The position numbers and the translations under genes are program-made. From Bacillota bacterium (GTDB lineage: Bacteria; Bacillota; Clostridia; Acetivibrionales; DTU013): a stretch of DNA of 64,000 nucleotides. Below are positions 7,759-53,165 of the stretch, piece by piece. The notes under the pieces are model-generated. The model worked only from the letters and a program-made list of their open reading frames with translations, searched no databases and was not told where the DNA came from. Position 1 is the first letter of the stretch; every line of letters begins with the position of its first letter. Where the stretch lies: the NCBI GenBank assembly GCA_023435925.1, contig JAEZLF010000288.1:13-64012 (forward strand), written 5' to 3'.

Positions 7759-7800
7759 TACTTTATTTATAGATGCATTGGTTTGGGGGCTTGCTTTGCA

Positions 7801-9678: not shown

Positions 9679-9714
9679 TTAAGTACCAACAAAACTATAG
9701 TGAGGAAAGTTCAA

Positions 9715-10575: not shown

Positions 10576-10586
10576 GGAGGCGACAT

Positions 10587-11456: not shown

Positions 11457-11520
11457 ATAAAGTGTTTAGGTTTAAAGATTAACGTTGAGAAAAGATTATG
11501 TATCGAAGGGAGTCTAAACA

Positions 11521-12084: not shown

Positions 12085-12102
12085 TATCCGGAGGGGGAGA
12101 AT

Positions 12103-13132: not shown

Positions 13133-14110
13133 ATGTCAGCACTGGCAAAGACTTATAAGAAATTGTTCATAATAATGGCTTTAGCGGCAGTCTTTATACT
13201 CTGTTATAAAGCGCCTTGGAACAGCTTCTTTGAAGCTACGCCAACTATTTGGGATATCATCGGGCTAATCATACTACTATTATGCTCATTCTTTCTTATG
13301 CTTTTGTTTTATAAGAGAGTATTTTTCTTTATTAAGGATATATACCAGGGAAGAAGACTAATTATTGAACTGGCGAAAAATGACTTAAAGAATCGGTTTT
13401 TAGGATCATACCTTGGTATTGTTTGGGCGTTTGTTCAGCCGATCGTAACGATCCTGATTTTTTGGTTTGTATTTCAGGTGGGCTTTAAGTCGGCCCCTGT
13501 TGAGGACTTCCCTTTCATATTGTGGTTGATATGCGGGATGATCCCCTGGAACTTTTTTTCCGAAAGTCTGCTGGGATCAACCACGTCAATACTGGATAAT
13601 AGCTATTTAGTAAAAAAGATAGTGTTCAGGGTAAATGTTCTGCCTATGGTAAGAATATTATCGTCATTATTTATCCACTTGTTTTTTATTGCTGTTATTT
13701 TTATCATGTTTTTGGTATACGGCTACAAACCCAGTATTTACAATCTACAGGTGATTTATTATCTGTTGGCTTTAATTGTTTTTATATTAGGGCTATCGTG
13801 GATTACATCCTCGCTAGTTATATTCTTCAGAGATTTAGGTCAGATTATAGGAATTATTATACAATTTGGATTTTGGCTAACTCCAATTTTTTGGTCATTC
13901 AATATTATGCCTGAAAAGTACCACTTTATTTTCAAGCTGAATCCGATGTATTACATTGTTGAAGGTTATCGAGATAGCTTCATCAATCACGTTTGGTTTT
14001 GGCACCATTACAATTTAACAATCAATTTTTGGATGATTACCTGTGGAGTTTTAATTGTAGGAATATTGCTTTTCAAAAAATTGAGACCTCATTTTGCTGA
14101 TATGTTATAG
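13133..14110 (+). CDS. wzm: ABC-2 type polysaccharide export permease (Wzm/TagG family)
   Basis: ELAKNDLKNRFLGSYLGIVWAFVQP entry motif followed by six hydrophobic segments. About 55 extra N-terminal residues carry two more hydrophobic stretches; an internal ATG near 13298 would give a canonical length. Confidence 0.85.
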   Translation: MSALAKTYKKLFIIMALAAVFILCYKAPWNSFFEATPTIWDIIGLIILLLCSFFLMLLFYKRVFFFIKDIYQGRRLIIELAKNDLKNRFLGSYLGIVWAFVQPIVTILIFWFVFQVGFKSAPVEDFPFILWLICGMIPWNFFSESLLGSTTSILDNSYLVKKIVFRVNVLPMVRILSSLFIHLFFIAVIFIMFLVYGYKPSIYNLQVIYYLLALIVFILGLSWITSSLVIFFRDLGQIIGIIIQFGFWLTPIFWSFNIMPEKYHFIFKLNPMYYIVEGYRDSFINHVWFWHHYNLTINFWMITCGVLIVGILLFKKLRPHFADML

Positions 14111-14127
14111 GAAGTGAGACAGATATA

Positions 14128-15408
14128 ATGAACGATGTTGCTATAAAAGTTGAGAATGTATCAAAAGTATATAAGCTATATGATAAGCCACTGGACAGGT
14201 TAAAGGAATCATTAAATCCTCTGCGCAGGAGTTATCATAGAGATTTCTATGCATTGAAGGATATCAGCTTTGTGATTAAAAAGGGTGAAACGGTTGGAAT
14301 CATTGGGAAAAATGGCTCCGGCAAATCAACATTGCTGAAAATTATTACTGGTGTGCTTACACAGTCAGAGGGAAGTGTGCAGGTCAATGGAAAAGTTTCT
14401 GCGCTCTTAGAATTAGGAGCAGGCTTTAACCCCGAGCTAACCGGAATTGAAAATATTTATCTTAATGGGACGATCATGGGGTATACGAAAGAAGAGATGG
14501 ATTCCAGGGTGGACGATATTTTAGCGTTTGCAGATATCGGCGATTTTGTCTATCAACCGGTAAAGACTTATTCAAGCGGTATGTTTGTAAGATTGGCATT
14601 TGCCGTAGCTATTAGTGTCGAGCCGGAGATATTTATAGTGGATGAAGCATTAGCTGTAGGCGATATCAGGTTTCAACAAAAGTGCTTGAGGAAAATTGAA
14701 GAGTTTAAGAAAAGTAAAACAGTAATCTTTGTCTCACATTCCCTCGCAGACATAAACCGGTTGTGCGAGACAGTGATATGGATAGATCAAGGGCATGTAG
14801 TGAAAACAGGAGAACCGTATGAGATATCGAAAGAATATCAGGCCTTCATGACAAATGCGGATTTTCACAAGGAATGTAATCTAAAGGTGGCTGAAAAAAC
14901 TGCCGCCGTAGAGGATACCAACCTGGGAATAGAACTGGATGAGATAGATAAAAGCATTGATGTAATAGGAGACTTAAAAGCACAAATTACTGGAGTGAAT
15001 ATTTTTGATTATGCTTTGAAACAAAAAATTAATTTAGTAAAAACCGGTCAAAGGGTAAAGGTTTTAGTAAAGGTTAGATATAATGAGTTTATTGAGAACC
15101 CAATAATCGGTATTACCATTAAAGATAATAGAGGGAGCATTATTACTGAAGTTAACAATTATGTTCTTGATAGATTTATTGATGTTGCAAAAAAGAATTA
15201 TGATTGTATATACAGTTTTGAATTTTTCTTTCCTAACCTATACAGCGGAGAATATACATTATCAGCAGCGATAGGTTCCGGTACGCAAATGGATCATAAG
15301 CAGCACTGTTATACTCACGATGTGTTAGTATTTAGTGTAATTAGTGAATGCCCATATATACTCCAAGGCAGTATATACATGGAGCCAGTAAACTTTGATG
15401 TACTCTAA
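14128..15408 (+). CDS. wzt: Polysaccharide export ABC ATPase with a C-terminal extension (Wzt type)
   Basis: Walker A GKNGSGKST, signature YSSGMFVRLAF, Walker B IFIVDEAL. About 170 extra C-terminal residues sit where Wzt proteins carry the glycan-cap-binding domain. Confidence 0.9.
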   Translation: MNDVAIKVENVSKVYKLYDKPLDRLKESLNPLRRSYHRDFYALKDISFVIKKGETVGIIGKNGSGKSTLLKIITGVLTQSEGSVQVNGKVSALLELGAGFNPELTGIENIYLNGTIMGYTKEEMDSRVDDILAFADIGDFVYQPVKTYSSGMFVRLAFAVAISVEPEIFIVDEALAVGDIRFQQKCLRKIEEFKKSKTVIFVSHSLADINRLCETVIWIDQGHVVKTGEPYEISKEYQAFMTNADFHKECNLKVAEKTAAVEDTNLGIELDEIDKSIDVIGDLKAQITGVNIFDYALKQKINLVKTGQRVKVLVKVRYNEFIENPIIGITIKDNRGSIITEVNNYVLDRFIDVAKKNYDCIYSFEFFFPNLYSGEYTLSAAIGSGTQMDHKQHCYTHDVLVFSVISECPYILQGSIYMEPVNFDVL

Positions 15409-21973: not shown

Positions 21974-22669
21974 ATGGAGGCTATTATATTAGCAGGCGGT
22001 TTTGGCAGTAGACTAAGATCAGTTATATCTGATACCCCAAAACCCATGGCACCGATAGCTAATAAGCCATTTTTGTGCTTTTTATTTGAGTATCTTATTA
22101 AAAACGAGGTTAACAAAGTTATCCTATCCGTCGGCTATAGATATGAAAAAATTGTTGAATATTATGGTAATCAGTATAAAGGAATATCAATTGCATATTC
22201 ATATGAAAGTAGGCCATTAGGGACAGGGGGGGGTATAAAGAAAGCTTTAGCACAAGTGTGTTCAGATGATGTATTTATATTAAACGGAGATACTTATTTT
22301 GATGTTAATTTAAGCAGTCTTTTGCAAAAGCATACCGATACTAATGCTGACATAACTTTATCTTTAAAGCCAATGTGTTACTATAATAGATATGGTTCTG
22401 TGACTACCATGGGTGATAGAGTTGTGAGATTTGAAGAAAAAAAGTTTAAAGAGTATGGTAATATAAATGGTGGAGTATATATTGCGAAAAGCTCAATATT
22501 TGATAAAGTGGAAATGCCAGAAAAATTCTCTTTCGAAGCTGATTTTTTAGATAGAAATGTTGAAACATTAAAAATTCATGCATTTATTGCAGATAGTTAT
22601 TTTATAGACATTGGGATACCTGAAGATTATGAAAAAGCACAAAAGGAGCTTCCTGTATTATATGAATAG
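21974..22669 (+). CDS. hddC: D-glycero-alpha-D-manno-heptose 1-phosphate guanylyltransferase
   Basis: MEAIILAGGFGSRLRSVISDTPKPMAP nucleotidyltransferase signature; about 230 aa. Sits between gmhA and gmhB. Confidence 0.8.
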   Translation: MEAIILAGGFGSRLRSVISDTPKPMAPIANKPFLCFLFEYLIKNEVNKVILSVGYRYEKIVEYYGNQYKGISIAYSYESRPLGTGGGIKKALAQVCSDDVFILNGDTYFDVNLSSLLQKHTDTNADITLSLKPMCYYNRYGSVTTMGDRVVRFEEKKFKEYGNINGGVYIAKSSIFDKVEMPEKFSFEADFLDRNVETLKIHAFIADSYFIDIGIPEDYEKAQKELPVLYE

Positions 22670-23216
22670 AGCACTGTTTCTGGATAGAGATGGAGTAGTA
22701 AACGTTGAGAAAAATTATGTGCATAGAATTAAGGACTTTGAGTTTGTTGAAGGTATATTCGAATTAACTATGTTTTTACAGAGCAAAGGTTATTTAATTT
22801 TTATAATTACAAACCAAGCTGGGATTGCACGAGGTTATTATACAGAAGAGGATTTTAGGATATTAAATGATTGGATGTTAAATGAGTTTATAAAGAGAGG
22901 CTGCAATATTTCCAAGGTATATTTTTGTCCACATCACCCCGTGTATGGTCTGGGAAAATACAAAATAGATTGTGAATGCAGAAAGCCAAAGCCTGGTATG
23001 ATATTGCTAGCTAAAGATGAATTCAATATTGATTTAGAGCAATCTATATTGATTGGTAATTCGGAATCAGATATGGAAGCCGGAATAAATGCTGGAATTG
23101 TTATTAATTATTTGTTAGCGGATGGAAGTACGAATGTAAATGAGAAAAAAGGATATAAAGTTGTAAAAAATTTATTAGACATAATGTACAAAATGCGGCT
23201 AGGGCTATTAATTTGA
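22662..23216 (+). CDS. gmhB: D,D-heptose 1,7-bisphosphate phosphatase (HAD family)
   Basis: LFLDRDGVVN (DxDG motif I), ITNQAG, CECRKPKPGM. The ATG at 22662 overlaps the hddC stop. Confidence 0.85.
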   Translation: MNRALFLDRDGVVNVEKNYVHRIKDFEFVEGIFELTMFLQSKGYLIFIITNQAGIARGYYTEEDFRILNDWMLNEFIKRGCNISKVYFCPHHPVYGLGKYKIDCECRKPKPGMILLAKDEFNIDLEQSILIGNSESDMEAGINAGIVINYLLADGSTNVNEKKGYKVVKNLLDIMYKMRLGLLI

Positions 23217-23291
23217 GTTATTGCAGTTCGACTGAGCCTAAAAGAACAAATATTTAGCTGCTTACATAAAGAATCCTGGAGGAATAGAAGG

Positions 23292-26200
23292 GTGAAAGAT
23301 AAAAACATACAGGAATCGAGAAGTGTTGAAATCAAAGGAATCGGCGTATGGGTTAGTGTATTCATCGCTATCACATTTGGTATTTTTGGGCCACTTGGAT
23401 TATATATAACCAATATAAATGAATTTTGGTTTTCTATAGGAGACATATGGTGGATTGCTTTGCTAGGAGGCTTACTTCTGTTTGCTGTATGCTTTGGAGT
23501 AAATCTTATTTTTAAAGACAAAAAACGCGAAATTTGCGCATGCCTGATATTTGGCGTGTCGTTGGGTTTCTATATTCAGGGGAATTGGGTTACTACTGAT
23601 TACGGGATACTGGATGGTAAAAATATCAATTGGAGTGCATATGCAGACATAGCAATTATAAATACTATGATATGGGTAATATGTTTCATGCTACCATTTG
23701 TCCTACGTCATTTCCTTCCAGAATACTGGAAAAAGATAATTAAGTATGCAGCAATTTTTTTTGTACTCATTCAGATCATTACGCTCGGAACGCTGCTGAT
23801 GACAACGAATCTCAGTCAGAACGATTCTGATACCTATCTGACGACTGACGGACAATTTGAATTATCCAAGAACGAAAATATTGTTATTTTTGTTCTTGAT
23901 GCTTTTGATTCGAGTTATTTAAAGGCGTTAATGGAAGAATACCCAGAACTAACGAGTGCCTTTGATAATTTTACATATTACCCGGACATGGTAGCCGGTG
24001 GAGCAACGACAAAGATTGCCATGCCAGCAATACTGACGGGAGTGCCATACACTCAATCCATCTCTTATTCAGACTACATTAATTATGCATATACGCAGAC
24101 CGATCTTTTTATTAAGCTCAAAGAACAGAATTATTCCACCGGGATATATACGATTCCAACTTTTGTTTCATCATCGCAGAGCGATTTGGTTGATAACCTC
24201 ACGACGGGAAAAACTAAAATAAATTCATATGGTAAGCTTGCAAAATATATCTATCAATTTGCTGCGTTTCGATACATGCCCCATTTATTGAAAAGTAAAT
24301 TCTGGTTTTACAGTGGCATATTTGACGAACTGAAGAGTGGTAGTAATGCCAAAAACTATTCTTATGATAATGTGACATTTTATCAAAACATGATGGAAGA
24401 TGGAATTTCATCCGATATAGAAGGAAATTCATTTAGATTGTACTACCTGCTGGGAGCGCACCCACCTTATGAGATGAATGAATATGCGGAAAAAGTATCG
24501 CCAAATGAAACATCACAACTACAACAGGCAAAAGGCTCTCTTTATATAATTGAGGAGTATATGAATCAACTCAAACAAGCAGGTATTTATGATAACACAG
24601 CCATTATAATTATGGCAGATCATGGCGACATTGGTCATCATCACAATCCTTTATTTATGATAAAATTATTCGGTGAGTCAAAGGATTTTTGTACTTCATA
24701 TGCACCGCTGTCATATTATGACCTACACGCTACGTTGCTATCAATTATAACCGGGAACGATAAAGATTATGGGAAAACGATTTTTGATTTTGAAGAAGGT
24801 GATAAGAGAGAACGCTATTTTTACTTCAATGCGTCTGAGAATTATTTAACATCAATTGTGGAATATGCAATTAACGGGTATGCGGGGGATGATAGTTCTG
24901 TTATAGCGACTGGCAATATCTATACAGGCAATTCTGACGACTCGTTAATTGCGCATGAATATGATTTTGGAACGGTATTGACTTTTGGACCTGATGGAAC
25001 AGCCATGTCGCATTGTATTAGCGGGTTCAGTGGTATTGATATGCTCAACTATACGTGGACAGATGGGAAAACAGCCAAGATGAGATTTGATTTGTCGGAA
25101 ATACCAAATCAGAACCTAATTACTAGTATCAATACGATGGTATACTCCAGTGTTAGATCCCAACGTGTTATCGTTAGGGTCGGGGAAAAGATAGTTCATG
25201 CAGGGATCTACGACAAAACCTCAACAATCGATTTTGTTGTCCCCAAAGAGTTGCTTGACGGCAAGACATTGATACTTGACTTTGAGTTTCCTGATGCTGT
25301 ATGCCCCCAGGAAGTATTCGGCGCAGGTCATGATTCTCGAACTCTTGCATTCGCATTAATGAATATGTCGATATCAGAAGGTATTCTCGAGGATGAAAAT
25401 GAAATATGCAGTTATTCTCTTGGTGATGTTATAGAGTTTACAAGTGAAAAGAACGGTACGAGATATTTCAAAAATGGTATAAACAAAATAGACCAAAACT
25501 ACGCATGGTCATCTGGCAATAAGAGCTGGATGATTATGGAAACCGGTGAAGTTGACAGTAATTTAGTGTGTTTTATAGATTTTGCCAGTGTTTTAAATGG
25601 GAGTCAGCGATTGACTATATCTACAAGAGGAACTACACTATATGATGACATTGTAACTTCTGATAAAAAGACAATAAGCTTTACGATACCGGCAGAATAT
25701 ATAGCCTCACAAACTATTTCCTTAGATTTTGAATATCAAGACGCGGCTTCTCCCAAGAATTTTGGTACTGGTACAGATGTGCGAGTTTTAGCAGTAGCAT
25801 TTAAATCGATTACTATTAAAAGAACCGATGAATATATGAAATTCAAGAAATTATTTTTTACTGACGGAAAAGCTGTGATTAGTTTTTCCGAGGACGGCAA
25901 CGATAAGTTGTATATAACTGAAGGCACAGATTGGTATACTAATCAAAAAACTTATCGCTGGACTGGAAAATATGCAGAACTTCAAACCGATATAGATTCT
26001 GATGTTGATTTGACTATGACTGTCTATGGATATGTCTATCAGCAATCGGGCGGAAGTATCGTTACACTTAATGGAACTGTCGTAGCCAATTTGGATGCTG
26101 GAGATGGTTTTAGGCAATATGAGATAGCGCTGCCAAGTAAACTACTAAAAGCAGACGGATTACAGACTATAGCATTTTCCTCAGAAAATGCGGTATCGCC

Positions 26201-26297
26201 ATTTGATGCGGGTACCGGAAAAGATAAAAGGGAATTGGGGATCGCTCTTAGTACGATCACTTTTGAAAAAGTATCAATTGTAGGTGAGGGTTCATAA
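23292..26297 (+). CDS. Polytopic alkaline-phosphatase-superfamily transferase (LtaS/EptA-like) with three C-terminal repeat modules
   Basis: Five N-terminal hydrophobic helices. Catalytic-domain motifs IVIFVLDAFDSSY, GGATTKIAMPAILTG (Thr nucleophile region as in phosphoethanolamine transferases) and IIIMADHGD. Three modules of about 140 aa each end in FGAGHDSRTLAFALMNMSI, FGTGTDVRVLAVAFKSITI and DAGTGKDKRELGIALSTITF. GTG start after GGAGG. Confidence 0.65.
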   Translation: MKDKNIQESRSVEIKGIGVWVSVFIAITFGIFGPLGLYITNINEFWFSIGDIWWIALLGGLLLFAVCFGVNLIFKDKKREICACLIFGVSLGFYIQGNWVTTDYGILDGKNINWSAYADIAIINTMIWVICFMLPFVLRHFLPEYWKKIIKYAAIFFVLIQIITLGTLLMTTNLSQNDSDTYLTTDGQFELSKNENIVIFVLDAFDSSYLKALMEEYPELTSAFDNFTYYPDMVAGGATTKIAMPAILTGVPYTQSISYSDYINYAYTQTDLFIKLKEQNYSTGIYTIPTFVSSSQSDLVDNLTTGKTKINSYGKLAKYIYQFAAFRYMPHLLKSKFWFYSGIFDELKSGSNAKNYSYDNVTFYQNMMEDGISSDIEGNSFRLYYLLGAHPPYEMNEYAEKVSPNETSQLQQAKGSLYIIEEYMNQLKQAGIYDNTAIIIMADHGDIGHHHNPLFMIKLFGESKDFCTSYAPLSYYDLHATLLSIITGNDKDYGKTIFDFEEGDKRERYFYFNASENYLTSIVEYAINGYAGDDSSVIATGNIYTGNSDDSLIAHEYDFGTVLTFGPDGTAMSHCISGFSGIDMLNYTWTDGKTAKMRFDLSEIPNQNLITSINTMVYSSVRSQRVIVRVGEKIVHAGIYDKTSTIDFVVPKELLDGKTLILDFEFPDAVCPQEVFGAGHDSRTLAFALMNMSISEGILEDENEICSYSLGDVIEFTSEKNGTRYFKNGINKIDQNYAWSSGNKSWMIMETGEVDSNLVCFIDFASVLNGSQRLTISTRGTTLYDDIVTSDKKTISFTIPAEYIASQTISLDFEYQDAASPKNFGTGTDVRVLAVAFKSITIKRTDEYMKFKKLFFTDGKAVISFSEDGNDKLYITEGTDWYTNQKTYRWTGKYAELQTDIDSDVDLTMTVYGYVYQQSGGSIVTLNGTVVANLDAGDGFRQYEIALPSKLLKADGLQTIAFSSENAVSPFDAGTGKDKRELGIALSTITFEKVSIVGEGS

Positions 26298-26299
26298 TA

Positions 26300-28201
26300 A
26301 TGGATACGATTATTTCTATTTTTGCTCAACTCCTTGGCTATGTGATGGATTTTTGCTATTCACTGCTCCACAATTATACTCTTGCCATTATTCTGTTTAC
26401 CCTCCTGACCAAGGTCATCTTACTCCCGGTATCAATTTGGGTGCACAGAAATGGCATCAAGATGGTACGTATGATGCCAGAAATTAATCGCTTCAAGGTT
26501 AAATATTTTGGTGATGGGGATAGTATTGCTGAAGAACAGCAGGCCCTATACAAACGCGAGAAATATAATGCTTTTGCAAGTATAATTCCAATGCTTATAC
26601 AGATCATTCTTTTGATTTCTCTTGTACGCGTTATTAATGTGAGTCTTGGCGGGACAACGCTTACAATGATACCTGTGCAGGCGAAAGGTCTTTCATTACT
26701 GATGCCTCTGGCGGCTGGTGCATCGGCGTTTATTCTTTCTATAACCCAAGACAGGATTAATCCTTTACAAAGAGAACAGAGCCGTATTAGTCAAATATCC
26801 ACCATGGCACTTTCGGTTGGGATTTCGTTGTTTCTCGGAGCTTTTGTTTCCATTGGCGTCGGTTTGTACTGGATATGCAGCAACCTATTCACTATTTCGC
26901 AGCAGCTTTTTTTGAATGCAATCATACCGCCTAAAAAGTATATTGACTATGAGGATCTGGAAAAAAGCAAGAGAGCTTTGGAGGAGCTAAACAAAATAGG
27001 TGATAGAAGTAAGAGAAAATGGAATGAAAAAGATCCGGATAAGAAGCGTGAGAAGGCAGATTATAAACGCTTTTTCTCTATCGCTAATAAGCACTTGGTA
27101 TTCTATTCTGAAAAGAGCGGGTTCTACAAGTATTTTGAAAACGTTATTGAGGAGCTATTACGCAGATCAAATATCATAATCCACTATATCACCAGCGACC
27201 CAAAAGACCAGATATTTGAGCTTGCTAAAGAGCAACCTCGTATAAAGCCGTATTATATTGGCGAAAAACGTTTGATTACCCTCATGATGAAGATGGATGC
27301 GGATATGGTGGTCATGACCATGCCTGATCTGGATAATTATCATTTTAAGCGATCCTATGTGCGAAAGGATATTGAATATGTATATATGTTCCACTATCCG
27401 TTAAGCACTCATTTGGTGCTTCGAAAAGGTGCTCTGGATCACTATGACACAATTTTTTGCGTAGGTGAATTTCAGTTTGATGAAATACGTGAAACTGAAA
27501 AGCTCTATTCCTTACCGGAGAAAAAACTAATAGCTGCTGGTTACGGACAATTAGAAAAGCTTTACGATAGTTACAGTAAGATGCAAAAGATTGCCCGTAC
27601 GCAAAAAAAAGTACTGATAGCACCATCCTGGCAGCAGGATAATATTCTTGACAGCTGTATTGATAATCTGCTTGCAGCCCTTTTGGGACAAGGTTTTCAA
27701 GTAATAGTACGTCCTCACCCGGAATATGTTAAGCGTTATGGTTTCCGGATGGATGCTATTGTCGAGAGATATAGGGAATATAATGGAGGCGATTTGGCCT
27801 TTGAACTGGATTTTTCCAGCAACAATTCGATTTTTGATTCAGATGTAGTAATTACTGACTGGTCAGGTACAGCATATGAGTTTTCGTTTGTTACGAAGAA
27901 ACCATCCGTCTTTATTAACACTCCACCCAAAATCAACAATCCGGAGTATAATAAGCTATCTGCGGAGCCACTGGAGATAACATTGCGGGACAAGATCGGT
28001 ATTCAAATGGAACCGGGTCACTTAGAAAACATCTCAGTCGAAATTAACAAACTACTGGATTCTTCAGGAGAGTATCAGAGTGAGATTACATCTATTGTAG
28101 ATAACTATATTGCTAACTTTGGTCATAGTGGGGAGATCGGAAGCAGATATATCATTAGCAGATTAAAAGAGATTGGAGTGAAGAGATCAAATGAAGGCTG
28201 A
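26300..28201 (+). CDS. Fusion protein: YidC/Oxa1-like membrane domain plus CDP-glycerol glycerophosphotransferase (TagB/TagF)-like domain
   Basis: N-terminal region: NYTLAIILFTLLTKVILLPVSIW, MMPEINRFKVKYFGD, QQALYKREKYNAF, IIPMLIQIILL (YidC pattern). A charged linker follows. C-terminal region: KVLIAPSWQQDN, VRPHPEY, VVITDWSGTAYEF (Glyphos_transf pattern). Confidence 0.65.
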   Translation: MDTIISIFAQLLGYVMDFCYSLLHNYTLAIILFTLLTKVILLPVSIWVHRNGIKMVRMMPEINRFKVKYFGDGDSIAEEQQALYKREKYNAFASIIPMLIQIILLISLVRVINVSLGGTTLTMIPVQAKGLSLLMPLAAGASAFILSITQDRINPLQREQSRISQISTMALSVGISLFLGAFVSIGVGLYWICSNLFTISQQLFLNAIIPPKKYIDYEDLEKSKRALEELNKIGDRSKRKWNEKDPDKKREKADYKRFFSIANKHLVFYSEKSGFYKYFENVIEELLRRSNIIIHYITSDPKDQIFELAKEQPRIKPYYIGEKRLITLMMKMDADMVVMTMPDLDNYHFKRSYVRKDIEYVYMFHYPLSTHLVLRKGALDHYDTIFCVGEFQFDEIRETEKLYSLPEKKLIAAGYGQLEKLYDSYSKMQKIARTQKKVLIAPSWQQDNILDSCIDNLLAALLGQGFQVIVRPHPEYVKRYGFRMDAIVERYREYNGGDLAFELDFSSNNSIFDSDVVITDWSGTAYEFSFVTKKPSVFINTPPKINNPEYNKLSAEPLEITLRDKIGIQMEPGHLENISVEINKLLDSSGEYQSEITSIVDNYIANFGHSGEIGSRYIISRLKEIGVKRSNEG

Positions 28202-29327
28202 ATTCTTTTTAAATATACTAAGTGAAAATTTGGGGGTAGATTTTTATGCAGGCGTGCCGGATTCTCAGCTCAAAGCATTATGTAACACTCTCTATGAGAA
28301 GTATGGATTGGGAGATAAGCATATTGTCGCAGCGAATGAAGGTGCTGCTGTTGGCCTGGCTGCTGGGCATTACATTGCCACTGGAAAGCCTGCCCTTGTG
28401 TATCTTCAGAACAGTGGGATCGGTAATATAATTAACCCTGTTGCCTCTTTACTGAATGAAATGGTATATGGTATTCCCTGCGTGTTTGCGGTAGGCTGGA
28501 GAGGAGAACCTGGAATCAAGGATGAGCCCCAGCATGCTTTTCAAGGCGAAGTGACAATTTCTCTATTGGAACTGATGAAAATAAAATGCTTTACCCTTTC
28601 CAAGGAAACGAAGAATGAAGAATTTCTTGAGTTTATTCAGCAGAGCAGAGAGCTTATTGCTGAAGGGAAAAGTATAGCTTTTGTTGTATGTAAAGGTGCA
28701 CTGGAAACCGACATCAAGCCTCACTTCGGAAATAATAATAAAATAAAGAGAGAAGATGCGCTTAGAACAATTGTAAAAAGTGCGAGCGATGGAGATATTT
28801 TTATTTCTACTACAGGAAAAACGTCCCGTGAATTATTTGAAATAAGAGAGGCTTTGGGGCAGGGACATGAAAAAGACTTCCTGACAGTGGGATCAATGGG
28901 ACATGCCTCTATGATAGCTATGGGAATAGCAATGGAATTGCCTGAGAGGACAGTGTGGTGTATTGATGGTGATGGAGCAGCGGTAATGCATTTGGGTAGC
29001 ATGGTGGTGCTGGCGAAGACTGGATGCAAGAATTTAATACATGTAGTATTTAATAACGGTGCTCACGAAAGTGTGGGAGGTATGCCGGTAGCATATGGTA
29101 AAACGGATTTTTGTTCACTGGCTAAAGCTGCAGGATATAATATTTGTATGAAAGTTTCGGATCATGCTGAGCTTATAGAAGCCTTAAATACCGCTACGAA
29201 GACGGAAGGAACTTTCTTTATAGAAATATTGGCAGCTCTGGGCTCAAGGGATGATCTAGGCAGGCCAACTACAACACCAAAAGAAAACAAATCAGCTCTT
29301 ATGAAATTTCTGAGAGAGGTGAAATAG
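28191..29327 (+). CDS. ppd: Phosphonopyruvate decarboxylase (ThDP-dependent)
   Basis: About 378 aa. ThDP motif GDG-x25-NN (IDGDGAAVMHLGS...VFNNGAHES). N-terminal GVPDSQLK block typical of Ppd/AepY. Context with PEP mutase supports the call. Confidence 0.85.
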   Translation: MKAEFFLNILSENLGVDFYAGVPDSQLKALCNTLYEKYGLGDKHIVAANEGAAVGLAAGHYIATGKPALVYLQNSGIGNIINPVASLLNEMVYGIPCVFAVGWRGEPGIKDEPQHAFQGEVTISLLELMKIKCFTLSKETKNEEFLEFIQQSRELIAEGKSIAFVVCKGALETDIKPHFGNNNKIKREDALRTIVKSASDGDIFISTTGKTSRELFEIREALGQGHEKDFLTVGSMGHASMIAMGIAMELPERTVWCIDGDGAAVMHLGSMVVLAKTGCKNLIHVVFNNGAHESVGGMPVAYGKTDFCSLAKAAGYNICMKVSDHAELIEALNTATKTEGTFFIEILAALGSRDDLGRPTTTPKENKSALMKFLREVK

Positions 29328-29331
29328 ATTA

Positions 29332-30066
29332 ATGAAAGCTTTGCTTTTAAATTCCGGTCTTGGAAGTAGAATGGGGAAGTTGACAGATGACAAGCCAAAG
29401 TGTATGTGCCCAATAGGAAATGGGTACAGTATCATAAGTTGGCAGTTAGAACTATTACGGACGCATGGAATTATGGATATTGTGATTACTACAGGCCCTT
29501 TTGAAAGGTCACTGAAAGAGCACGTCCTGACCTATGGAGAAGGATTAAACTTTACCTTTGTCAACAATCCGATTTACCAAGAAACAAATTATATTTTTTC
29601 CATGTATTTGGCAAGAGAGCATTTAAAAGATGATATTCTACTTTTACATGGCGATCTTGTATTAGAACCTTCTGTTGTTGCAGACCTGTTATTTTCAGAC
29701 CATAGTGTAGTAACAGTGGATAAATTACTGCCTCTTCCGGAAAAAGATTTTAAAGCAAAGCATGACGGCAGTAAGATCAAAGCGGTGGGAATTGAATTCT
29801 TCGGGAATGACTGCGAAGCCTGCCAACCGGCATATAAATGGACTAAAGCTGACTTTGCTTTGTGGATGAATGAAATTGAAGCATTCTGCAAAAGAGGTAA
29901 AACAAAGGTCTATGCCGAGAATGCATTTAATTGTGTAAGCGACCAGATAGATTTGTATCCCCTGGAACTTGAAAAGAGACTCTGCAATGAAATTGATAAT
30001 TTGGACGATCTGATGGCAATTACCGAAAGATTTCAACGATTATTAAGTAAGGAGAGGAAGCAATGA
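29332..30066 (+). CDS. LicC/PntC/TarI-like nucleotidyl(cytidylyl)transferase
   Basis: MKALLLNSGLGSRMGKLTDDKPKCM glycine-rich NTP-binding loop; about 244 aa. The substrate cannot be assigned from sequence. Confidence 0.65.
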   Translation: MKALLLNSGLGSRMGKLTDDKPKCMCPIGNGYSIISWQLELLRTHGIMDIVITTGPFERSLKEHVLTYGEGLNFTFVNNPIYQETNYIFSMYLAREHLKDDILLLHGDLVLEPSVVADLLFSDHSVVTVDKLLPLPEKDFKAKHDGSKIKAVGIEFFGNDCEACQPAYKWTKADFALWMNEIEAFCKRGKTKVYAENAFNCVSDQIDLYPLELEKRLCNEIDNLDDLMAITERFQRLLSKERKQ

Positions 30067-31355
30067 AAAAAGTTTATATGTGCTTTAGCACAGATATTAT
30101 TCACAATGGGCACATGAATATTATTCAAAAAGCTTCAAAGCTTGGAGAGTTAACAGTTGGAGTTCTAACGGATGAGGTGGTTGCCACATTTAAACGGTAT
30201 CCTCTGATCCCTTTGGATGAACGCATTCAAATGTTTCAAAACATTAAAGGTGTGGCAAAAGTTGTTGTTCAGGATAAGCTAGAGTATAACGATATTTTAA
30301 ATCAGTTAAAGCCAGATATTGTTGTTCATGGTGATGATTGGCATACAGGATATCAAGCTGGAATTCGTGATAAAGTTATTGAGGTTCTAAAAGGATGGGG
30401 AGGTAAGCTTGTTGAATATCCTTACACGCATTCTCCAACGGAAGAAACCCTTAGCAGCCTTGATCAAAAACTTTCTATGCCTGAAAATCGCCGCTCAAGG
30501 TTAAAGAAGTTGTTACAGTATAAGCCTTGTTTATCAGTATTAGAAGCGCATAATGGCCTTACTGGATTGATTGTGGAACATACGAAGGTAGATACGGGCA
30601 CTGGTGTAAGGCAGTTTGATGCGATGTGGGTCTCCAGCCTTTGTGATTCTACTGCAAAAGGTAAGCCAGACATCGAACTGGTGGATATGACCTCCCGAAT
30701 CAATACACTAGAGGAAATTATGGAAGTAACAACAAAACCAATCATCCTGGATGGGGATACTGGCGGACTGACCGAGCACTTTATTTTTACTATAAGGACT
30801 TTAGAGAGAATAGGTGTATCTGCTGTTATTATTGAAGATAAGACTGGATTAAAGAAGAATTCACTTTTTGGAACTGACGCCGAGCAGGTTCAAGAGTCCA
30901 TTGAGAAATTCTGTGAGAAGATCAGTGCAGGGAAAAACGCATTGAAAACCAAAGATTTTATGATTATTGCGCGATGTGAAAGCCTTATTTTGAATCAAGG
31001 CTTGGAAGATGCACTTAAGAGATGTAAGGCATATGTGGAAGCAGGAGCGGATGGTATTATGATTCATTCCTGCAGAAAGGAGCCCGATGAGGTTCTGGAA
31101 TTTTGCAGAAAATTCCGTGAGATAGATCTATCTACGCCGATCGTAGCGGTGCCTACAACGTACAACAGTATTACTGAAGAAGAATTGGGGGCTGCCGGTG
31201 TAAATATAGTAATTCATGCAAATCATCTTTTAAGAAGTGCATTTCCTGCTATGCAGAAAGTTGCAAAGACTATACTTTCTCACTCTAGAACCCTTGAAGC
31301 AGATGAATACTGTATGCCAATTAAAAGTATTCTAACGCTGATTCCAAATGAATGA
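30063..31355 (+). CDS. pepM: Bifunctional HxGH cytidylyltransferase :: phosphoenolpyruvate mutase (Fom1-type architecture)
   Basis: Residues 1 to about 135: FSTDIIHNGHMNII (HxGH) of the TagD-like cytidylyltransferase fold. Residues from about 140 to 430: LSVLEAHNGLTGLIVE, FDAMWVSSLCDS and the PepM-diagnostic EDKxxxxxNS motif (EDKTGLKKNS, nt 30834-30863). Confidence 0.9.
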   Translation: MKKVYMCFSTDIIHNGHMNIIQKASKLGELTVGVLTDEVVATFKRYPLIPLDERIQMFQNIKGVAKVVVQDKLEYNDILNQLKPDIVVHGDDWHTGYQAGIRDKVIEVLKGWGGKLVEYPYTHSPTEETLSSLDQKLSMPENRRSRLKKLLQYKPCLSVLEAHNGLTGLIVEHTKVDTGTGVRQFDAMWVSSLCDSTAKGKPDIELVDMTSRINTLEEIMEVTTKPIILDGDTGGLTEHFIFTIRTLERIGVSAVIIEDKTGLKKNSLFGTDAEQVQESIEKFCEKISAGKNALKTKDFMIIARCESLILNQGLEDALKRCKAYVEAGADGIMIHSCRKEPDEVLEFCRKFREIDLSTPIVAVPTTYNSITEEELGAAGVNIVIHANHLLRSAFPAMQKVAKTILSHSRTLEADEYCMPIKSILTLIPNE

Positions 31356-31370
31356 AAGGGGTGCTCACTT

Positions 31371-32510
31371 ATGAGACAATATTTGCCTTTTTCACCTGTA
31401 GAGATTGTCTTTACATCCCGAAAGGAAGCAATAGTTTACCTGAAAGATCTGGTTTTCGGAGGAGATAGATCTTTGCTGTTAGCTAGTGAAGGAAGGATTA
31501 ATGCGCTAGGATCAGGACAATGGATTTCAGATTTAAAGGATTCTGGAAAGATCATTCATCTTAGCCAAATTCCCGTTAACCCAACTGTTTTAGATGTTTA
31601 TAGTAATCTTAAGATGCTGCAGGGGACCCAACTGAATCAAATTATTGCAATAGGCGGTGGAAGCTGTATTGATCTTGCAAAAGCAATTAGTGCTCTCCAC
31701 TATTTGATACAGGAAGACAAATTATCTGTACAATCTGTGCGCAACGCCATCAAAGACAAGAAATATCTGAACGGGCATCGTTTTATAGATGTTATAGCAG
31801 TACCTACAACATCGGGAACAGGGTCTGAAGTAACTAAGTGGGCAACAATCTGGGATATGGAGCAGAAAGAGAAGCTATCTGTGGACAGCGTTAACAGCTT
31901 TCCCAAAGTGGCATTGATTGCCCCGGACATTACAACATCTGTGCCTGCTCGGTTATCACTTTCAACAGGATTAGATGCACTTTCGCATGCAATGGAAGCA
32001 TTTTGGGCCAGAAGCAGATCACCATTGTCTCAGGCATTAGCAATATCGGCAATCGAACTTGTGAAAAAGTTTCTTCCCCAAGTGCTGAATGATGGCAGAA
32101 ATGCAGAGTATCGAGAAGGGATGAGTTTAGCTTCATTATTGGCTGGTCTAGCCTTTTCTATGACCAGAACGACAGCATGTCACTCTATATCTTATCCGTT
32201 AACAATGCATTTTGGTGTGGAACACGGCTTTGCGACAGCCATGACTCTGATCCAAGTAGCAGAACGTAATGAAGCTGTTGTACCTGAGATTAGCAGAATA
32301 TATTCAATCTTTGGAGGAAAAACGGCATTCATTCAATGGTTTAAAGATGTAACACATCCAGTTTTAGACTTAAAATTATCTGCCTTTGGAGTTTACCTGA
32401 CCGATTTGGATTTTATTGCGGAAAGAACTTTTACTCAAGGAAGAATGGATAATAATCCGATTACATTTTCTCAGCAAGAAGTGAAAGATATATTGCAGAA
32501 GGCTTTTTAA
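31371..32510 (+). CDS. Group-III iron-containing alcohol dehydrogenase, predicted phosphonoacetaldehyde reductase (PhpC/FomC-like)
   Basis: GGGSCIDLAKA, TTSGTGSEVT, HAMEAFW and CHSISYPL metal/NAD(P) motifs. Lies immediately downstream of pepM. Confidence 0.75.
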   Translation: MRQYLPFSPVEIVFTSRKEAIVYLKDLVFGGDRSLLLASEGRINALGSGQWISDLKDSGKIIHLSQIPVNPTVLDVYSNLKMLQGTQLNQIIAIGGGSCIDLAKAISALHYLIQEDKLSVQSVRNAIKDKKYLNGHRFIDVIAVPTTSGTGSEVTKWATIWDMEQKEKLSVDSVNSFPKVALIAPDITTSVPARLSLSTGLDALSHAMEAFWARSRSPLSQALAISAIELVKKFLPQVLNDGRNAEYREGMSLASLLAGLAFSMTRTTACHSISYPLTMHFGVEHGFATAMTLIQVAERNEAVVPEISRIYSIFGGKTAFIQWFKDVTHPVLDLKLSAFGVYLTDLDFIAERTFTQGRMDNNPITFSQQEVKDILQKAF

Positions 32511-32587
32511 GTGTAATTTGAAGTACAGGTATGTATTAATGTTTCTTATGGTATTTTGTAATATGTGGGAACACCCTATTTAGAAAC

Positions 32588-32616
32588 TTGTAGATTTCCC
32601 ATTTAAATTGTATAAT
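32588..32616 (+). promoter_or_regulatory. Candidate sigma-A promoter for the small ORF at 32659
   Basis: TTGTAG (32588-32593), 17-nt spacer, TATAAT (32611-32616). Confidence 0.4.
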
Positions 32617-32658
32617 TAGGGTTGAATTCAGCAGATACGTTGGAAGGGGGATTTTTTC

Positions 32659-32910
32659 TTGAGTATTATCAATTTAATGAATCAGATACCTACTCTGTTA
32701 CCCAAAGTTTTTTTCGCTTATATTGACCCGTCAGTAATGACCTATACGATACAGGCGGTTGCAGGTGTTGTTATAGCTATCGGTGCGGTTGTTGGCATTG
32801 TTTGGCGAAATGCCAGAAAAAAAGCGAAGCAGGTCCTCAATATTGATGATAACGCCAAAAAAGAGGTTGAAGAGGATGTTGTAGAGATTGACCCTGATGA
32901 GAAGAAATAA
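32659..32910 (+). CDS. Small hypothetical membrane protein with an acidic tail
   Basis: TTG start after GGAAGGGGG. One clear TM helix (YTIQAVAGVVIAIGAVVGIVW), a basic patch RNARKKAKQ, then KKEVEEDVVEIDPDEKK. No family recognised. Confidence 0.4.
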   Translation: MSIINLMNQIPTLLPKVFFAYIDPSVMTYTIQAVAGVVIAIGAVVGIVWRNARKKAKQVLNIDDNAKKEVEEDVVEIDPDEKK

Positions 32911-32924
32911 TTGGTGAGGAATCG

Positions 32925-32960
32925 CTACACCAGCTCGTGTACTGTAGTGAACTGGTGTAG
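32925..32960. terminator. Inverted repeat between convergent genes (possible bidirectional terminator)
   Basis: ctacaccag (32925-32933) pairs with ctggtgtag (32952-32960). The loop is 18 nt and there is no clear U-run. Confidence 0.3.
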
Positions 32961-32992
32961 TGATTAGCGAAGCTTCCTGCTCGACCGTCAGA

Positions 32993-33760: not shown

Positions 33761-33944
33761 GCGAATCCTCATTGCTTTATTTTTTCTTTCATCATAGCAT
33801 ATCTCAATGCGGAGTACAAACGGAGTATTTCAGCCAGATTACTCATCCATATATTTATCTCATTTCCATGCTTTTTTCTAAAGCAAAATGTAGTGAAATG
33901 AGGTATAATGTAAACATATAACAATCGGATTTGTGAGGTTATCC

Positions 33945-39485: not shown

Positions 39486-39528
39486 TGGCTTCATTGACCT
39501 TATAAAGTGCTTGGGATGGAACAAACGT

Positions 39529-53151: not shown

Positions 53152-53165
53152 GAGGTGTGAATGAT

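Follow-up and report, generated by a model that had tools for sequence, protein, structure and literature searches.

In the 64,000-nucleotide stretch of DNA analysed here (the window), one open reading frame, which joins a YidC/Oxa1-type membrane domain to a TagF/TarL-type phosphotransferase domain, forms the centre of a conserved envelope-modification module of four parts. As judged from its sequence, this module probably transfers phosphonate-type head groups from the cytoplasm to cell-wall sugars. The fusion protein is genetically locked to an LtaS-like enzyme, through their places in the operon as well as through natural gene fusions, and a small membrane protein with a YIDPS motif is locked to it likewise. 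A variable cassette that appears to supply a cytidylyl-activated head group accompanies the module, and the cassette of the window is predicted to be of the CMP-2-hydroxyethylphosphonate (CMP-HEP) type. The fusion gene is divided as follows.

26300..28201, + strand: fusion ORF, ATG start, 633 aa; YidC/Oxa1-type membrane domain, charged linker, TagF/TarL-type GT-B phosphotransferase domain
26375..26917, + strand: YidC core, aa 26-206 (Pfam, NCBIfam, PDB alignment, model secondary structure, conservation in 65 orthologues)
26924..27040, + strand: basic, charged, partly disordered linker, aa 209-247 (model pLDDT, conservation)
27041..28198, + strand: TagF-like GT-B domain, aa 248-633 (Pfam, Foldseek, profile matches, conservation)

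An earlier note on this DNA had described this ORF, which is present as claimed, as a YidC-like N-terminus followed by a charged linker and a part resembling CDP-glycerol glycerophosphotransferases, and all three assignments were borne out: 60KD_IMP and Glyphos_transf both matched above cutoff within the one ORF, and Foldseek searches with an AlphaFold2 model (pLDDT 85.8, pTM 0.70) led to YidC for the N-terminal domain and to TagF for the C-terminal one. Pfam 60KD_IMP (PF02096) covered aa 26-206 over the whole profile (positions 1-162 of 163, E 1.8e-32, 113 bits against a cutoff of 35), and NCBIfam TIGR03592 (yidC_oxa1_cterm) scored 97.1 bits against a cutoff of 84.3. All 20 NCBIfam housekeeping-YidC equivalog models stayed far under cutoff (NF002803 SpoIIIJ, for instance, with 52 bits against 377). 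The N-terminal domain belongs to the YidC family, yet it is no housekeeping YidC. The model contains five transmembrane (TM) helices with a cytoplasmic coiled-coil hairpin between TM1 and TM2 (helices 26-40/42-68, 73-86, 91-115, 130-153, 162-182 and 185-208), and was matched to E. coli YidC 6al2 with an rmsd of 3.8-4.1 Å over ~200 residues at 24% identity. According to the positive-inside rule, the five-helix domain is oriented N-out, C-in, and the TagF-like domain is cytoplasmic. Residues 236-243 of the linker are the sole low-confidence stretch of the model (pLDDT <50), and the linker has the lowest mean column conservation among 65 orthologues, 0.51 versus 0.62 for the YidC part and 0.64 for the enzyme part. 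Its position is presumably that of the basic C-terminal tail in stand-alone YidC2/Oxa1 proteins.

In a PDB sequence alignment, Lys38 of the groove (codon 26411-26413) fell on E. coli R366. This residue is Lys in 61 and Arg in 3 of the 65 orthologues, so that the charge is kept in 64/65. Q101, Y190, W191 and N195 are 100% conserved in these proteins, which are 43-79% identical, and the equivalent of E. coli S520 is Ser in 58 of them. The NP motif of YidC reads NA in the fusion protein and HP in the family consensus, while the Pro of the QxP motif in TM2 is absent family-wide; the earlier note had correctly pointed to both positions, and the changes are minor. Variants of ~700 aa carry an extra segment of 60-74 aa, which is inserted into the outside loop between TM2 and TM3; a fused copy of the small protein, which we had considered, was ruled out.

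Over the C-terminal part, Pfam Glyphos_transf (PF04464) matched aa 400-538 with 31.2 bits against a cutoff of 22.1, covering profile positions 150-291 of 367 only; in the relatives P0130 and P0123, positions 10-293 were matched. The top PDB match of this domain in Foldseek was TagF (3l7k_D, E 2.4e-10, target-normalised TM-score 0.54), followed by generic GT-B enzymes. A family profile of the domain only, with stand-alone homologues included, reached TarL 8va1 (1.3e-7) and the TagF-like polymerase Cps3D 8qoy (5.3e-7); PDB sequence searches with the whole fusion protein and with a whole-protein profile found YidC only and no TagF match. R471-P-H473-P (His codon 27716-27718) and D520-W-S522 are invariant in the 65 orthologues, and RPH473P and ITD520WSG were aligned to KMHP and ISDYSS of TarL, respectively. 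H473 and S522 are also invariant in a 35-sequence alignment with 34 shorter homologues (~380-400 aa) that have no YidC domain. The conserved His of the (K/R)xHP motif is, we assume, H584 of TagF. Also invariant in the 65 orthologues are H365 (codon 27392-27394), D383, E395, E527 and N547. H365 follows the strand 359-363 in the context F-H-x-x-x-S and is invariant in all alignments; no residue-for-residue alignment of it to TagF was obtained, and the first catalytic His of TagF, which we take to be H444, was aligned to the fusion family by no tool used. Stand-alone TagF-like homologues exist in two loci without YidC or LtaS-like genes (L084, L089), and the ancestral activity may therefore have been direct glycan decoration in the cytoplasm. 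No tagD, tagO or tagA genes were seen within the window, and the sequence context suggests that the donors are likely other than CDP-glycerol or CDP-ribitol: CMP-HEP here, and the products of other cassettes elsewhere.

The fusion gene lies in the following surroundings.

13133..15408, + strand: Wzm/Wzt ABC exporter, sharing a same-strand gene array with the module
23292..26297, + strand: LtaS-like membrane enzyme of the alkaline-phosphatase superfamily, 1001 aa (Pfam, PDB matches, TM segments, conserved catalytic set, natural fusions)
28191..29327, + strand: phosphonopyruvate decarboxylase (Ppd), a TPP enzyme (Pfam), overlapping the fusion ORF
29332..30066, + strand: NTP_transf_3 nucleotidyltransferase, PntC/LicC type (Pfam; PMC6697681)
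30063..31355, + strand: PF01467 cytidylyltransferase domain fused to PEP mutase (Ppm), Fom1 architecture (Pfam, motifs; PMC6697681)
31371..32510, + strand: Fe-dependent alcohol dehydrogenase (Fe-ADH), PhpC type (Pfam; PMC8942020)
32659..32910, + strand: small YIDPS membrane protein, 83 aa, TTG start (tblastn, sequence, locus counts, fusions)

The LtaS-like gene ends 2 nt upstream of the fusion ATG (26300). At the other end, the fusion ORF overlaps the Ppd gene, as had been noticed before, by 11 nt (28191 versus 28201), and the Ppd ATG is preceded by a GGAG-type ribosome-binding site. A promoter and terminator scan of positions 22500-34000 gave the same counts as shuffled sequences. The LtaS-like protein has 4-5 N-terminal TM helices, a predicted extracytoplasmic catalytic domain and three C-terminal repeats; it matched Pfam Sulfatase (1.5e-10), its best PDB sequence matches were LtaS 2w5q and 2w8d, and its catalytic set D203, T240, H390 and D443-H444 is conserved in 30-33 of 35 partners.

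The cytidylyltransferase-Ppm protein of the window carries the EDKTGLKKNS motif of a genuine Ppm and an HNGH motif, and the Fe-ADH is predicted to reduce phosphonoacetaldehyde to 2-hydroxyethylphosphonate (HEP). Together, the cytidylyltransferase-Ppm protein, Ppd, Fe-ADH and the NTP_transf_3 enzyme point to the synthesis of CMP-HEP, an assignment made from Pfam matches and motifs and, for the Fom1 cytidylyltransferase domain, from the literature (PMC6697681). From its genes, the locus is predicted to make a wall polysaccharide of rhamnose/heptose type that leaves the cell through an ABC transporter; Wzt has a glycan-binding domain at its C-terminus, and the polysaccharide exported by Wzm/Wzt is the likely acceptor.

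The small protein consists of a pre-sequence, the segment YIDPSVMTY, one TM helix, the stretch RNARKKAK and an acidic IDDNAKKEVEED tail, and it was recovered among the neighbours of orthologues by tblastn (1e-33). It and its relatives are annotated as hypothetical throughout; Pfam contained no family for it, nor for the 480-aa and 306-aa neighbours found in other loci, and the nature of all three was judged from motifs and hydropathy. Y-[ILV]-D-P is kept in distant versions, as YLDPNSGG in locus L085 and YLDPGTGS in protein P0241. Some copies have no pre-sequence and are Pf3-coat-like, others have a cleavable one and are M13-procoat-like. With its short acidic outside segment, single TM helix and basic inside flank, the protein resembles a classical YidC substrate; it probably plays a structural or regulatory part, either within the groove or next to it.

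The best 120 database matches of the fusion protein listed were all full-length, at 55-85% identity, and relatives were encoded on 146 genome stretches from Oscillospiraceae, Lachnospiraceae, Eggerthellaceae, Kiritimatiellia and Victivallales. Gut and rumen Clostridia, Coriobacteriia and Kiritimatiellia commonly carry the fusion; Angelakisella massiliensis (L018) and Lacrimispora saccharolytica (L075) are two carriers in culture. Its public annotation is simply "membrane protein insertase YidC", a label that misrepresents thousands of genes. Partners were counted within 8 kb in 41 loci with at least 6 kb on both flanks (complete loci). No other neighbour accompanies the fusion gene as constantly as the small protein (38/41). 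An LtaS-like protein is encoded in 28 loci and a divergent alkaline-phosphatase-like protein of 480 aa with five TM helices in 5 more, which gives an alkaline-phosphatase-type partner in 33 of the 41; none was found within 8 kb in the other 8. An NTP_transf_3-type nucleotidyltransferase is present in 32 complete loci and Ppm in 19; NTP_AT counts were disregarded, being inflated by cross-matches to the shared nucleotidyltransferase domain. Loci without Ppm have either NTP-transferase/aminotransferase fusions, which represent other cytidylyl-activation cassettes, or no activation genes. Since Ppm occurs in only 19 of the 41, the family is not phosphonate-specific. The fusion protein had been proposed as the consumer of a cytidylyl-activated phosphonate, and with the CMP-HEP genes beside it, it is the best candidate for this role in the locus of the window, but the proposal does not extend to the whole family. 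Similarly, the phosphonate genes are its linked context in the window, but its tightest partners, as the fusions show, are the LtaS-like enzyme and the small YIDPS protein, both of which the earlier note had missed.

All four module parts are joined by natural fusions, in both orders, with four-part proteins of 1326-1410 aa among them. Among the top 150 cluster representatives, 8 are LtaS-like-YidC-TagF-like fusions and 8 are YidC-TagF-like-(YIDPS hairpin)-LtaS-like fusions, the latter order being found also in loci L031 and L034; the small protein is fused either between the TagF-like and LtaS-like parts or N-terminally to TagF-like domains. The predicted topologies are compatible with every fusion order. 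In L085, with a different gene order, the parts are separate genes (Sulfatase, CT-Ppm, Ppd, Fe-ADH, TagF-like, small protein, YidC). This locus alone was counted as a true split form; the apparently split YidC and TagF-like pairs of L091, at 1.6x coverage, and of L092, with overlapping frames on a long-read contig, probably stem from frameshifts in the assembly and were left out.

For the module, the following relay may be proposed. At the inner leaflet, the TagF-like domain would transfer the head group of CMP-HEP to a hydroxyl group on a carrier embedded in the membrane, most probably a lipid of diacylglycerol or glycolipid type, giving the loaded carrier and CMP. The anionic head group would then slide to the outer leaflet, scramblase-like, through the hydrophilic and positively charged groove of the YidC-like domain, a passage of the kind that the earlier note had raised as an option. 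E. coli YidC acts as a scramblase of glycerophospholipids in vitro (PMC11047089), and such scrambling is known for generic phospholipids in liposomes only. The phosphonyl group would be taken onto the catalytic Thr of the LtaS-like enzyme and passed to the rhamnose/heptose wall polysaccharide exported by Wzm/Wzt of the same locus, much as GacH, an enzyme of LtaS type, adds glycerol phosphate outside the cell in a rhamnose-polysaccharide setting (10.1101/337519). Alternatively, the LtaS-like enzyme might polymerise HEP, which is conceivable because HEP keeps a free hydroxyl. We infer all three steps, namely loading by the TagF-like domain, passage through the groove and transfer to the wall glycan, and we put the whole model forward tentatively, as a serious possibility somewhat short of probable. 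Against it stand the 8 loci with no alkaline-phosphatase-type partner within 8 kb, the small protein, which the model does not require even though it is the most constant partner, and the Pfam TagF match of the fusion protein, which is restricted to the C-terminal half of the profile. In a broader reading, which we regard as possible but doubtful, an Oxa1-fold domain was recruited from protein insertion to a dedicated small-molecule relay, its groove standing between a fused cytoplasmic TagF-like loader and an LtaS-like unloader that is either fused or adjacent. Here the groove is possibly occupied by the YIDPS mini-protein as a substrate mimic, with the phosphonyl or phosphoryl head groups carried either on lipid or on the mini-protein.

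It is unlikely, in our judgement, that the YidC-like domain serves instead as a dedicated insertase or chaperone for the small protein and for the five-helix anchor of the LtaS-like enzyme, with the TagF-like domain decorating the lipid-linked polysaccharide directly, on the cytoplasmic side, before ABC export. In both of its forms the small protein has the look of a model substrate for YidC alone, 6 of the 41 complete loci contain a gene for an S26 signal peptidase, the coiled-coil hairpin and basic tail typical of insertases are retained, and stand-alone TagF-like homologues are predicted to work without YidC. However, a housekeeping YidC is, to our knowledge, already present in all bacteria, a permanent fusion of an insertase to its own substrate is hard to rationalise, and the combination of a cytoplasmic CMP-X transferase and an extracytoplasmic phosphotransferase in one polypeptide is left unexplained.

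Two further explanations seem to us improbable. One is a DltX-like shuttle with a protein carrier, in which the TagF-like domain would load Tyr, Ser or Thr of YIDPSVMTY while this segment lies in the YidC groove, open to the cytoplasm; the groove would then bring the segment outside for unloading by the LtaS-like enzyme. The constancy of the small protein, the persistence of its Y-[ILV]-D-P motif even in distant versions, its direct fusion to TagF-like domains in some proteins and a conserved Asp that could pair with Lys38 of the groove are in keeping with such a shuttle, yet reversible YidC-mediated shuttling is without precedent, the motif is expected to be permanently outside in versions with a cleavable signal peptide, and the idea is wholly speculative. 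The other is a teichoic-acid-like polymer: the TagF-like domain would prime or polymerise HEP, or another unit, on a glycolipid, the YidC-like domain would export the chain, and the LtaS-like enzyme would extend it or transfer it to the wall. TagF, TarL and Cps3D are indeed polymerases, CMP-HEP is formally analogous to CDP-glycerol in that HEP retains a free hydroxyl after transfer, and minimal modules occur near a diacylglycerol glycosyltransferase gene (MGDG_synth in L082). On the other hand, a groove of the size of that in YidC is unlikely to export a long polyanion, several of the head groups that other cassettes imply, amino-alcohol phosphates among them, would be incapable of polymerisation, and an ABC exporter for the polymer of the locus is already encoded there. 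Finally, a YidC-like part that acts solely as an anchor, which the earlier note had entertained, would suit the need of TagF-family enzymes for membrane proximity, but it is very improbable and, from the alignments, disfavoured, because this part equals the catalytic part in its degree of conservation and keeps its groove charge (64/65) and polar groove residues in orthologues as little as 43% identical, because a simple N-terminal hairpin replaces it in the homologues P0160 and P0241, so that one or two helices are evidently enough, and because in L085 it is a separate gene of the same module.

Should the relay through the YidC groove prove true, it would be the first pathway-specific, non-insertase job of the Oxa1 superfamily and would supply the missing step from CMP-phosphonates to phosphonoglycans. 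The module is a concrete and widespread candidate for the post-cytidylylation step of surface phosphonate tailoring in gut and rumen anaerobes. Its interchangeable head-group cassettes suggest a general route for placing unusual charged groups on Gram-positive wall polysaccharides, and groups of this kind bear on phage receptors, host immunity and cation binding. The earlier note knew of no such fusion in the teichoic-acid literature, and our literature searches on a YidC-TagF fusion or a phosphonate-LtaS link likewise found nothing relevant. The module is also a natural experiment on the physiological use of the lipid scrambling by YidC/Oxa1 proteins, so far an in vitro activity (PMC11047089).

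Compared with known systems, the TagF-like domain shares its GT-B fold and cytoplasmic location with TagF, TarL and TagF-like capsule polymerases, TagF being its top structural match, and has the (K/R)xHP histidine, D-(Y/W)-S motif and AP(S/T)(W/F) motif of TagF and TarL; the cytidylyltransferases encoded nearby imply that CMP is the leaving group. It differs in being very divergent (15% identity to TagF), in the replacement of the Arg of the APTWR motif (APSWQ), and in its likely donors, with CMP-phosphonates and further small head groups in place of CDP-glycerol or CDP-ribitol. Whereas TagF binds the membrane peripherally, the fusion enzyme is joined to, or encoded with, a polytopic YidC-type domain.

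Like YidC, SpoIIIJ and Oxa1, that domain has the full five-helix core, the coiled-coil hairpin, a positive groove residue at the R366 site and a basic segment after TM5; equivalents of Q429, Y516, Y517 and N521 are invariant and that of S520 is nearly so. The change to Lys in the fusion family at the site of E. coli R366 and B. halodurans R72 is conservative. Unlike them, the fusion protein has no lipoprotein signal or periplasmic domain, the family has a groove Lys for Arg and has lost the Pro of the TM2 motif, and its genes lie in accessory polysaccharide loci, joined to enzymes. We know of no YidC-family member that serves a small-molecule or glycan pathway.

The partner enzyme resembles LtaS and GacH in its N-terminal TM helices, outside alkaline-phosphatase-fold domain, Thr nucleophile and metal-ligand set, and its gene, like gacH, lies in an ABC-transporter-type rhamnose polysaccharide locus (10.1101/337519). 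For LtaS and GacH, however, bulk phosphatidylglycerol is the source of the head group, and neither requires a donor synthase or flippase of its own, while the partner enzyme is linked, in some cases within one polypeptide, to a CMP-X transferase on the cytoplasmic side and to a YidC-like domain.

The proposed logic of the module, deduced here purely from genetic linkage, is like that of GacI/GacJ/GacK/GacL, GtrA/GtrB/Gtr and CsbB/GtcA/YfhO, the latter two following the same load-flip-transfer scheme of decoration as the first. In the GacI/GacJ/GacL system, a carrier is loaded in the cytoplasm with a small membrane partner, flipped, and used outside to decorate an exported glycan (10.1101/180810). 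All four protein families of the module differ from those of the Gac, Gtr and CsbB systems, a phosphoryl or phosphonyl group would be moved instead of a sugar, and the flippase role of its YidC-like domain is hypothetical.

With PntC and LicC-LicD, the module has in common a CMP- or CDP-activated head group, made beside Ppm-Ppd genes and bound for cell-surface glycans; the step after the CMP-phosphonate has been described as enigmatic or given to LicD-like enzymes (PMC6697681). In the loci described here, by contrast, that position is occupied by the TagF-like/YidC/LtaS-like module.

The ORF at 26300..28201 (+ strand, 633 aa) had been read in an earlier note, from the sequence alone, as a YidC-like membrane domain joined by a very charged linker to a TagF-type phosphotransferase, and this observation was confirmed in every particular. 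Residues 26-206 match the whole Pfam 60KD_IMP profile (E 1.8e-32; 113 bits, gathering score 35) and exceed the cutoff of the NCBIfam YidC/Oxa1 C-terminal domain model (97 bits vs 84), while residues 400-538 match Glyphos_transf (31 bits vs 22) over profile positions 150-291 of 367 only. The AlphaFold2 model, whose input alignment contained 31 homologues, was confident (pLDDT 85.8, pTM 0.70), with the linker (aa 236-243) as the sole disordered stretch. Foldseek recovered E. coli YidC (6al2) for the N-terminal domain (about 4 Å over 200 residues, 24% identity) and ranked TagF (3l7k) first in the PDB for the C-terminal GT-B domain (E 2.4e-10). The family profile of the latter also matched TarL, which polymerises ribitol phosphate (8va1, 1.3e-7), and Cps3D, a capsule polymerase of TagF-like type (8qoy, 5.3e-7), aligning RPH473P with KMHP, ITD520WSG with ISDYSS, and APSW with APTF/APTWR. 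The last codons do overlap the start of the phosphonopyruvate decarboxylase (Ppd) gene, by 11 nt, and a 2-nt gap separates the ORF from the upstream gene. The finding is thus real, and more interesting than could be seen from the sequence alone.

This ORF scores far below the cutoff of every NCBIfam housekeeping-YidC equivalog model, so we treat the N-terminal part as a YidC-family domain and not as a housekeeping YidC. Its first 25 residues are free of Lys and Arg and include two Asp, the TM1-TM2 (aa 47-90) and TM3-TM4 (aa 149-168) loops are rich in Lys/Arg, and a strongly basic segment follows TM5; this distribution of charge predicts the standard YidC topology, with the N-terminus outside and the C-terminus inside. 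The TagF-like domain would therefore be cytoplasmic, at the site where CTP-derived donors are made. In orthologues of about 700 aa (cluster representatives P0018, P0072, P0088 and P0114), the TM2-TM3 loop on the extracytoplasmic side is enlarged by 60-74 aa inserted after residue 112; the insertion opens with a conserved Y(H/N)PL motif.

The best 120 database matches are all full-length fusions (55-85% identity), and the sources that name them say only "membrane protein insertase YidC". When species-representative genomes were scanned, 146 encoded relatives could be confirmed, mostly from gut and rumen metagenome bins, in Oscillospiraceae, Lachnospiraceae, Eggerthellaceae and other Coriobacteriia, Kiritimatiellia and Victivallales; the few cultured carriers are Angelakisella massiliensis, Lacrimispora saccharolytica, Anaerotruncus sp. 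G3 and Curtanaerobium respiraculi. The C-domain on its own, in an exhaustive HMMER search, matched 2155 cluster representatives with E <= 1e-3 and 551 with E <= 1e-30. The earlier note could not place an insertase-derived anchor in the teichoic-acid literature, and our literature search for the YidC-TagF architecture likewise found no paper.

In the window, the fusion ORF lies in a long same-strand array for cell-wall polysaccharide, whose features are as follows.

9700-13125: rmlD/A/C/B
13133-15408: Wzm and Wzt, the latter with a C-terminal glycan-binding domain
15436-19500, after Wzm/Wzt: 1354-aa protein with two methyltransferase domains, GT2 and GT1
same array: GDP-heptose-type set (GHMP kinase, SIS isomerase, nucleotidyltransferase, HAD phosphatase)
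23292..26297, upstream gene of the fusion ORF: LtaS-like protein, 1001 aa
immediately downstream of the fusion ORF, phosphonate cassette: Ppd, then NTP_transf_3 nucleotidyltransferase
next in this cassette: PF01467 cytidylyltransferase-PEP mutase (Ppm) fusion with the diagnostic EDKTGLKKNS motif, then Fe-ADH
32659..32910: small YIDPS protein, 83 aa
further downstream in the array: Bac_transf, GDP-mannose dehydratase and more glycosyltransferases

The 1354-aa protein resembles an enzyme that terminates chains or polymerises them in an ABC-transporter-dependent polysaccharide pathway. Two adjacent Wzy_C (O-antigen ligase-like) proteins of 612 and 631 aa (5920-9678) lie upstream of the rml genes. 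At 39511-43033, a 645-aa GHMP-kinase/NTP-transferase fusion comes after a 531-aa protein lacking a Pfam match, a region resembling a second sugar-1-phosphate activation route of this locus. Tandem TolC-like OEP proteins (51997-54335 and 54633-56936), then an SLH/Big_5 protein, are also encoded; TolC-like proteins are unexpected in a monoderm, and the nearest relatives of the genome are Clostridia/Oscillospiraceae. The ORFs listed at 21974..22669 and 22611..23216 overlap by 59 nt, and for the HAD phosphatase ORF the listed TTG start probably lies too far upstream.

The coupling to phosphonate genes described in the earlier note stands in the window, while the LtaS-like and small YIDPS partners had been overlooked. 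The LtaS-like protein combines 4-5 TM helices at the N-terminus with an alkaline-phosphatase-fold domain on the outside (Pfam Sulfatase) and three repeats at the C-terminus; by sequence, it matches the lipoteichoic acid synthases LtaS (2w5q, 2w8d) best among PDB entries, and the catalytic set D203, T240, H390 and D443-H444 is kept across the family. The repeats (about 100-150 aa each, aa 570-1001, window 25000-26294) share the motif (F/D)G(A/T)G.D.R.LA and may bind the glycan acceptor, a part that a separate 306-aa single-TM beta-rich protein may fill in other loci. The small protein consists of a pre-sequence, YIDPSVMTY, one TM helix, RNARKKAK and an acidic tail; a Pfam search assigned it no family, and its approximately 980 database clusters are all "hypothetical". 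In six of 41 complete loci (for example L036:13831-14286 and L020:5113-5625), the module includes a gene for a type I signal peptidase (Peptidase_S26), which may cut the small protein at its AxA|YIDPS site.

Partners within 8 kb of the fusion gene in the 41 orthologous loci whose flanks each extend for 6 kb or more
small YIDPS protein: 38
LtaS-like protein: 28
divergent 480-aa alkaline-phosphatase-like protein (five TM helices) plus the 306-aa protein: 5 more
no recognisable alkaline-phosphatase-type partner: 8
NTP_transf_3-type nucleotidyltransferase: 32
Ppm: 19
Ppd: 19
Fe-ADH: 15

Natural fusions, read by Pfam, motifs and local HMMs, join the parts in both orders. Among the top 150 representatives, the order LtaS-like-YidC-TagF-like occurs in eight (e.g. 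P0122, P0130) and YidC-TagF-like-(YIDPS hairpin)-LtaS-like in another eight (e.g. P0128, P0131, P0140, P0165), the latter also in loci L031 and L034. L035 has the small protein as the N-terminal part of its LtaS-like protein, P0160 and P0241 have it as the N-terminal part of a TagF-like domain without YidC, and the 306-aa protein is fused ahead of YidC in P0123 and P0137. All these orders are compatible with the predicted topologies. In locus L085, the same set of parts is found in a different order as separate genes: Sulfatase, CT-Ppm, Ppd, Fe-ADH, TagF-like (374 aa), small protein (AYLDPNSGG) and YidC (224 aa). A widespread protein annotated only as "YidC" is, then, the core of a previously undescribed four-component module.

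The fused PF01467 domain of Fom1 makes CMP-2-hydroxyethylphosphonate (CMP-HEP; PMC6697681), and PhpC-type Fe-ADHs reduce phosphonoacetaldehyde to HEP (PMC8942020); by these precedents, the cassette of the window encodes CMP-HEP synthesis. The phosphonate link does not define the family, as the Ppm count shows. In about a dozen loci, the YidC-TagF gene adjoins fusions of NTP_transf_3 with a class I/II aminotransferase (607 aa; L045:12681-14504, L075:11883-13706), which replace the phosphonate genes and whose product may be an amino-alcohol phosphate. L004 and L036 have an NTP-transferase with an MFS transporter or other partners instead, and L082/L083 hold a minimal module of LtaS-like protein, fusion and small protein, nothing more. 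A few genes from this minimal module is an MGDG_synth-type diacylglycerol glycosyltransferase (L082:15481-16596), which hints at a link to glycolipid anchors. In L089 (527-7692) and L090, a stand-alone TagF-like homologue neighbours a PPDK-like kinase (999 aa, PPDK_N/PEP-utilizers), a C26 amidotransferase (Peptidase_C26/GATase) and NTP_transf_3, which is how the genes are composed in the C. jejuni O-methyl-phosphoramidate (CDP-phosphoramidate/CDP-amidate) pathway (Cj1418/1417/1416). This suggests that the TagF-like clade also transfers phosphoramidate and, with the varied cassettes, the substrates of the clade appear to span various small head groups in cytidylyl-activated form.

Across 65 full-length orthologues (43-79% identity), mean column conservation was 0.62 in the YidC part, 0.64 in the enzyme part and 0.51 in the linker. 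The position aligned with the groove arginine R366 of E. coli YidC is Lys in 61 and Arg in three, and Q101, Y190, W191 and N195 (E. coli Q429, Y516, Y517 and N521) are invariant. Some relatives use a simple hairpin anchor in place of the YidC part, which L085 keeps as a separate gene. Together, these observations argue against the suggestion of the earlier note that this part could be only an anchor; its retained activity may be protein insertion or something else.

An inside CMP-X transferase and an outside LtaS-type phosphotransferase are fused with a groove-containing polytopic domain between them, and the simplest explanation, which we favour tentatively, is a relay. The TagF-like domain would transfer the HEP phosphonyl group from CMP-HEP onto a hydroxyl of a carrier embedded in the membrane. 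A lipid of the diacylglycerol or glycolipid type is the most plausible carrier, since lipid phosphodiesters serve as donors for LtaS, GacH and EptA-type enzymes alike. The anionic head group would then cross the membrane via the YidC-like groove; E. coli YidC scrambles phospholipids in vitro (PMC11047089). Finally, the LtaS-like enzyme would move the group onto the ABC-exported polysaccharide, much as GacH adds glycerol phosphate to the group A carbohydrate outside the cytoplasm (10.1101/337519). As a class, the module would load, flip and transfer an envelope decoration using unexpected families; that the fusion represents a new use of the YidC/Oxa1 fold is possible, if somewhat doubtful.

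That eight of the 41 loci show no recognisable alkaline-phosphatase-type partner nearby is a weak point of the relay, which also has no need of the most constant partner, the small protein. It resembles classical YidC substrates, and a dedicated insertase, with a signal peptidase gene occasionally nearby, would fit at least as well on this point; overall we consider that reading unlikely, yet worth keeping in view. A protein-carrier shuttle through the YIDPS protein, and intracellular polymer synthesis followed by export, are each improbable. TagF-like homologues also stand alone, with neither YidC nor LtaS-like partners, and the ancestral activity may therefore be direct decoration in the cytoplasm. 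A pure anchor is the least probable reading, the YidC part being conserved about as well as the enzyme part, with its groove residues kept.

Ordinary LtaS and GacH draw on bulk phosphatidylglycerol, whereas the relay would have a dedicated loader and translocator; these would be required for exotic head groups only, which fits the swappable cassettes. The four-part layout parallels that of GacI, GacJ, a flippase and GacL, a system whose carrier-loading enzyme is activated by a small membrane protein (10.1101/180810).
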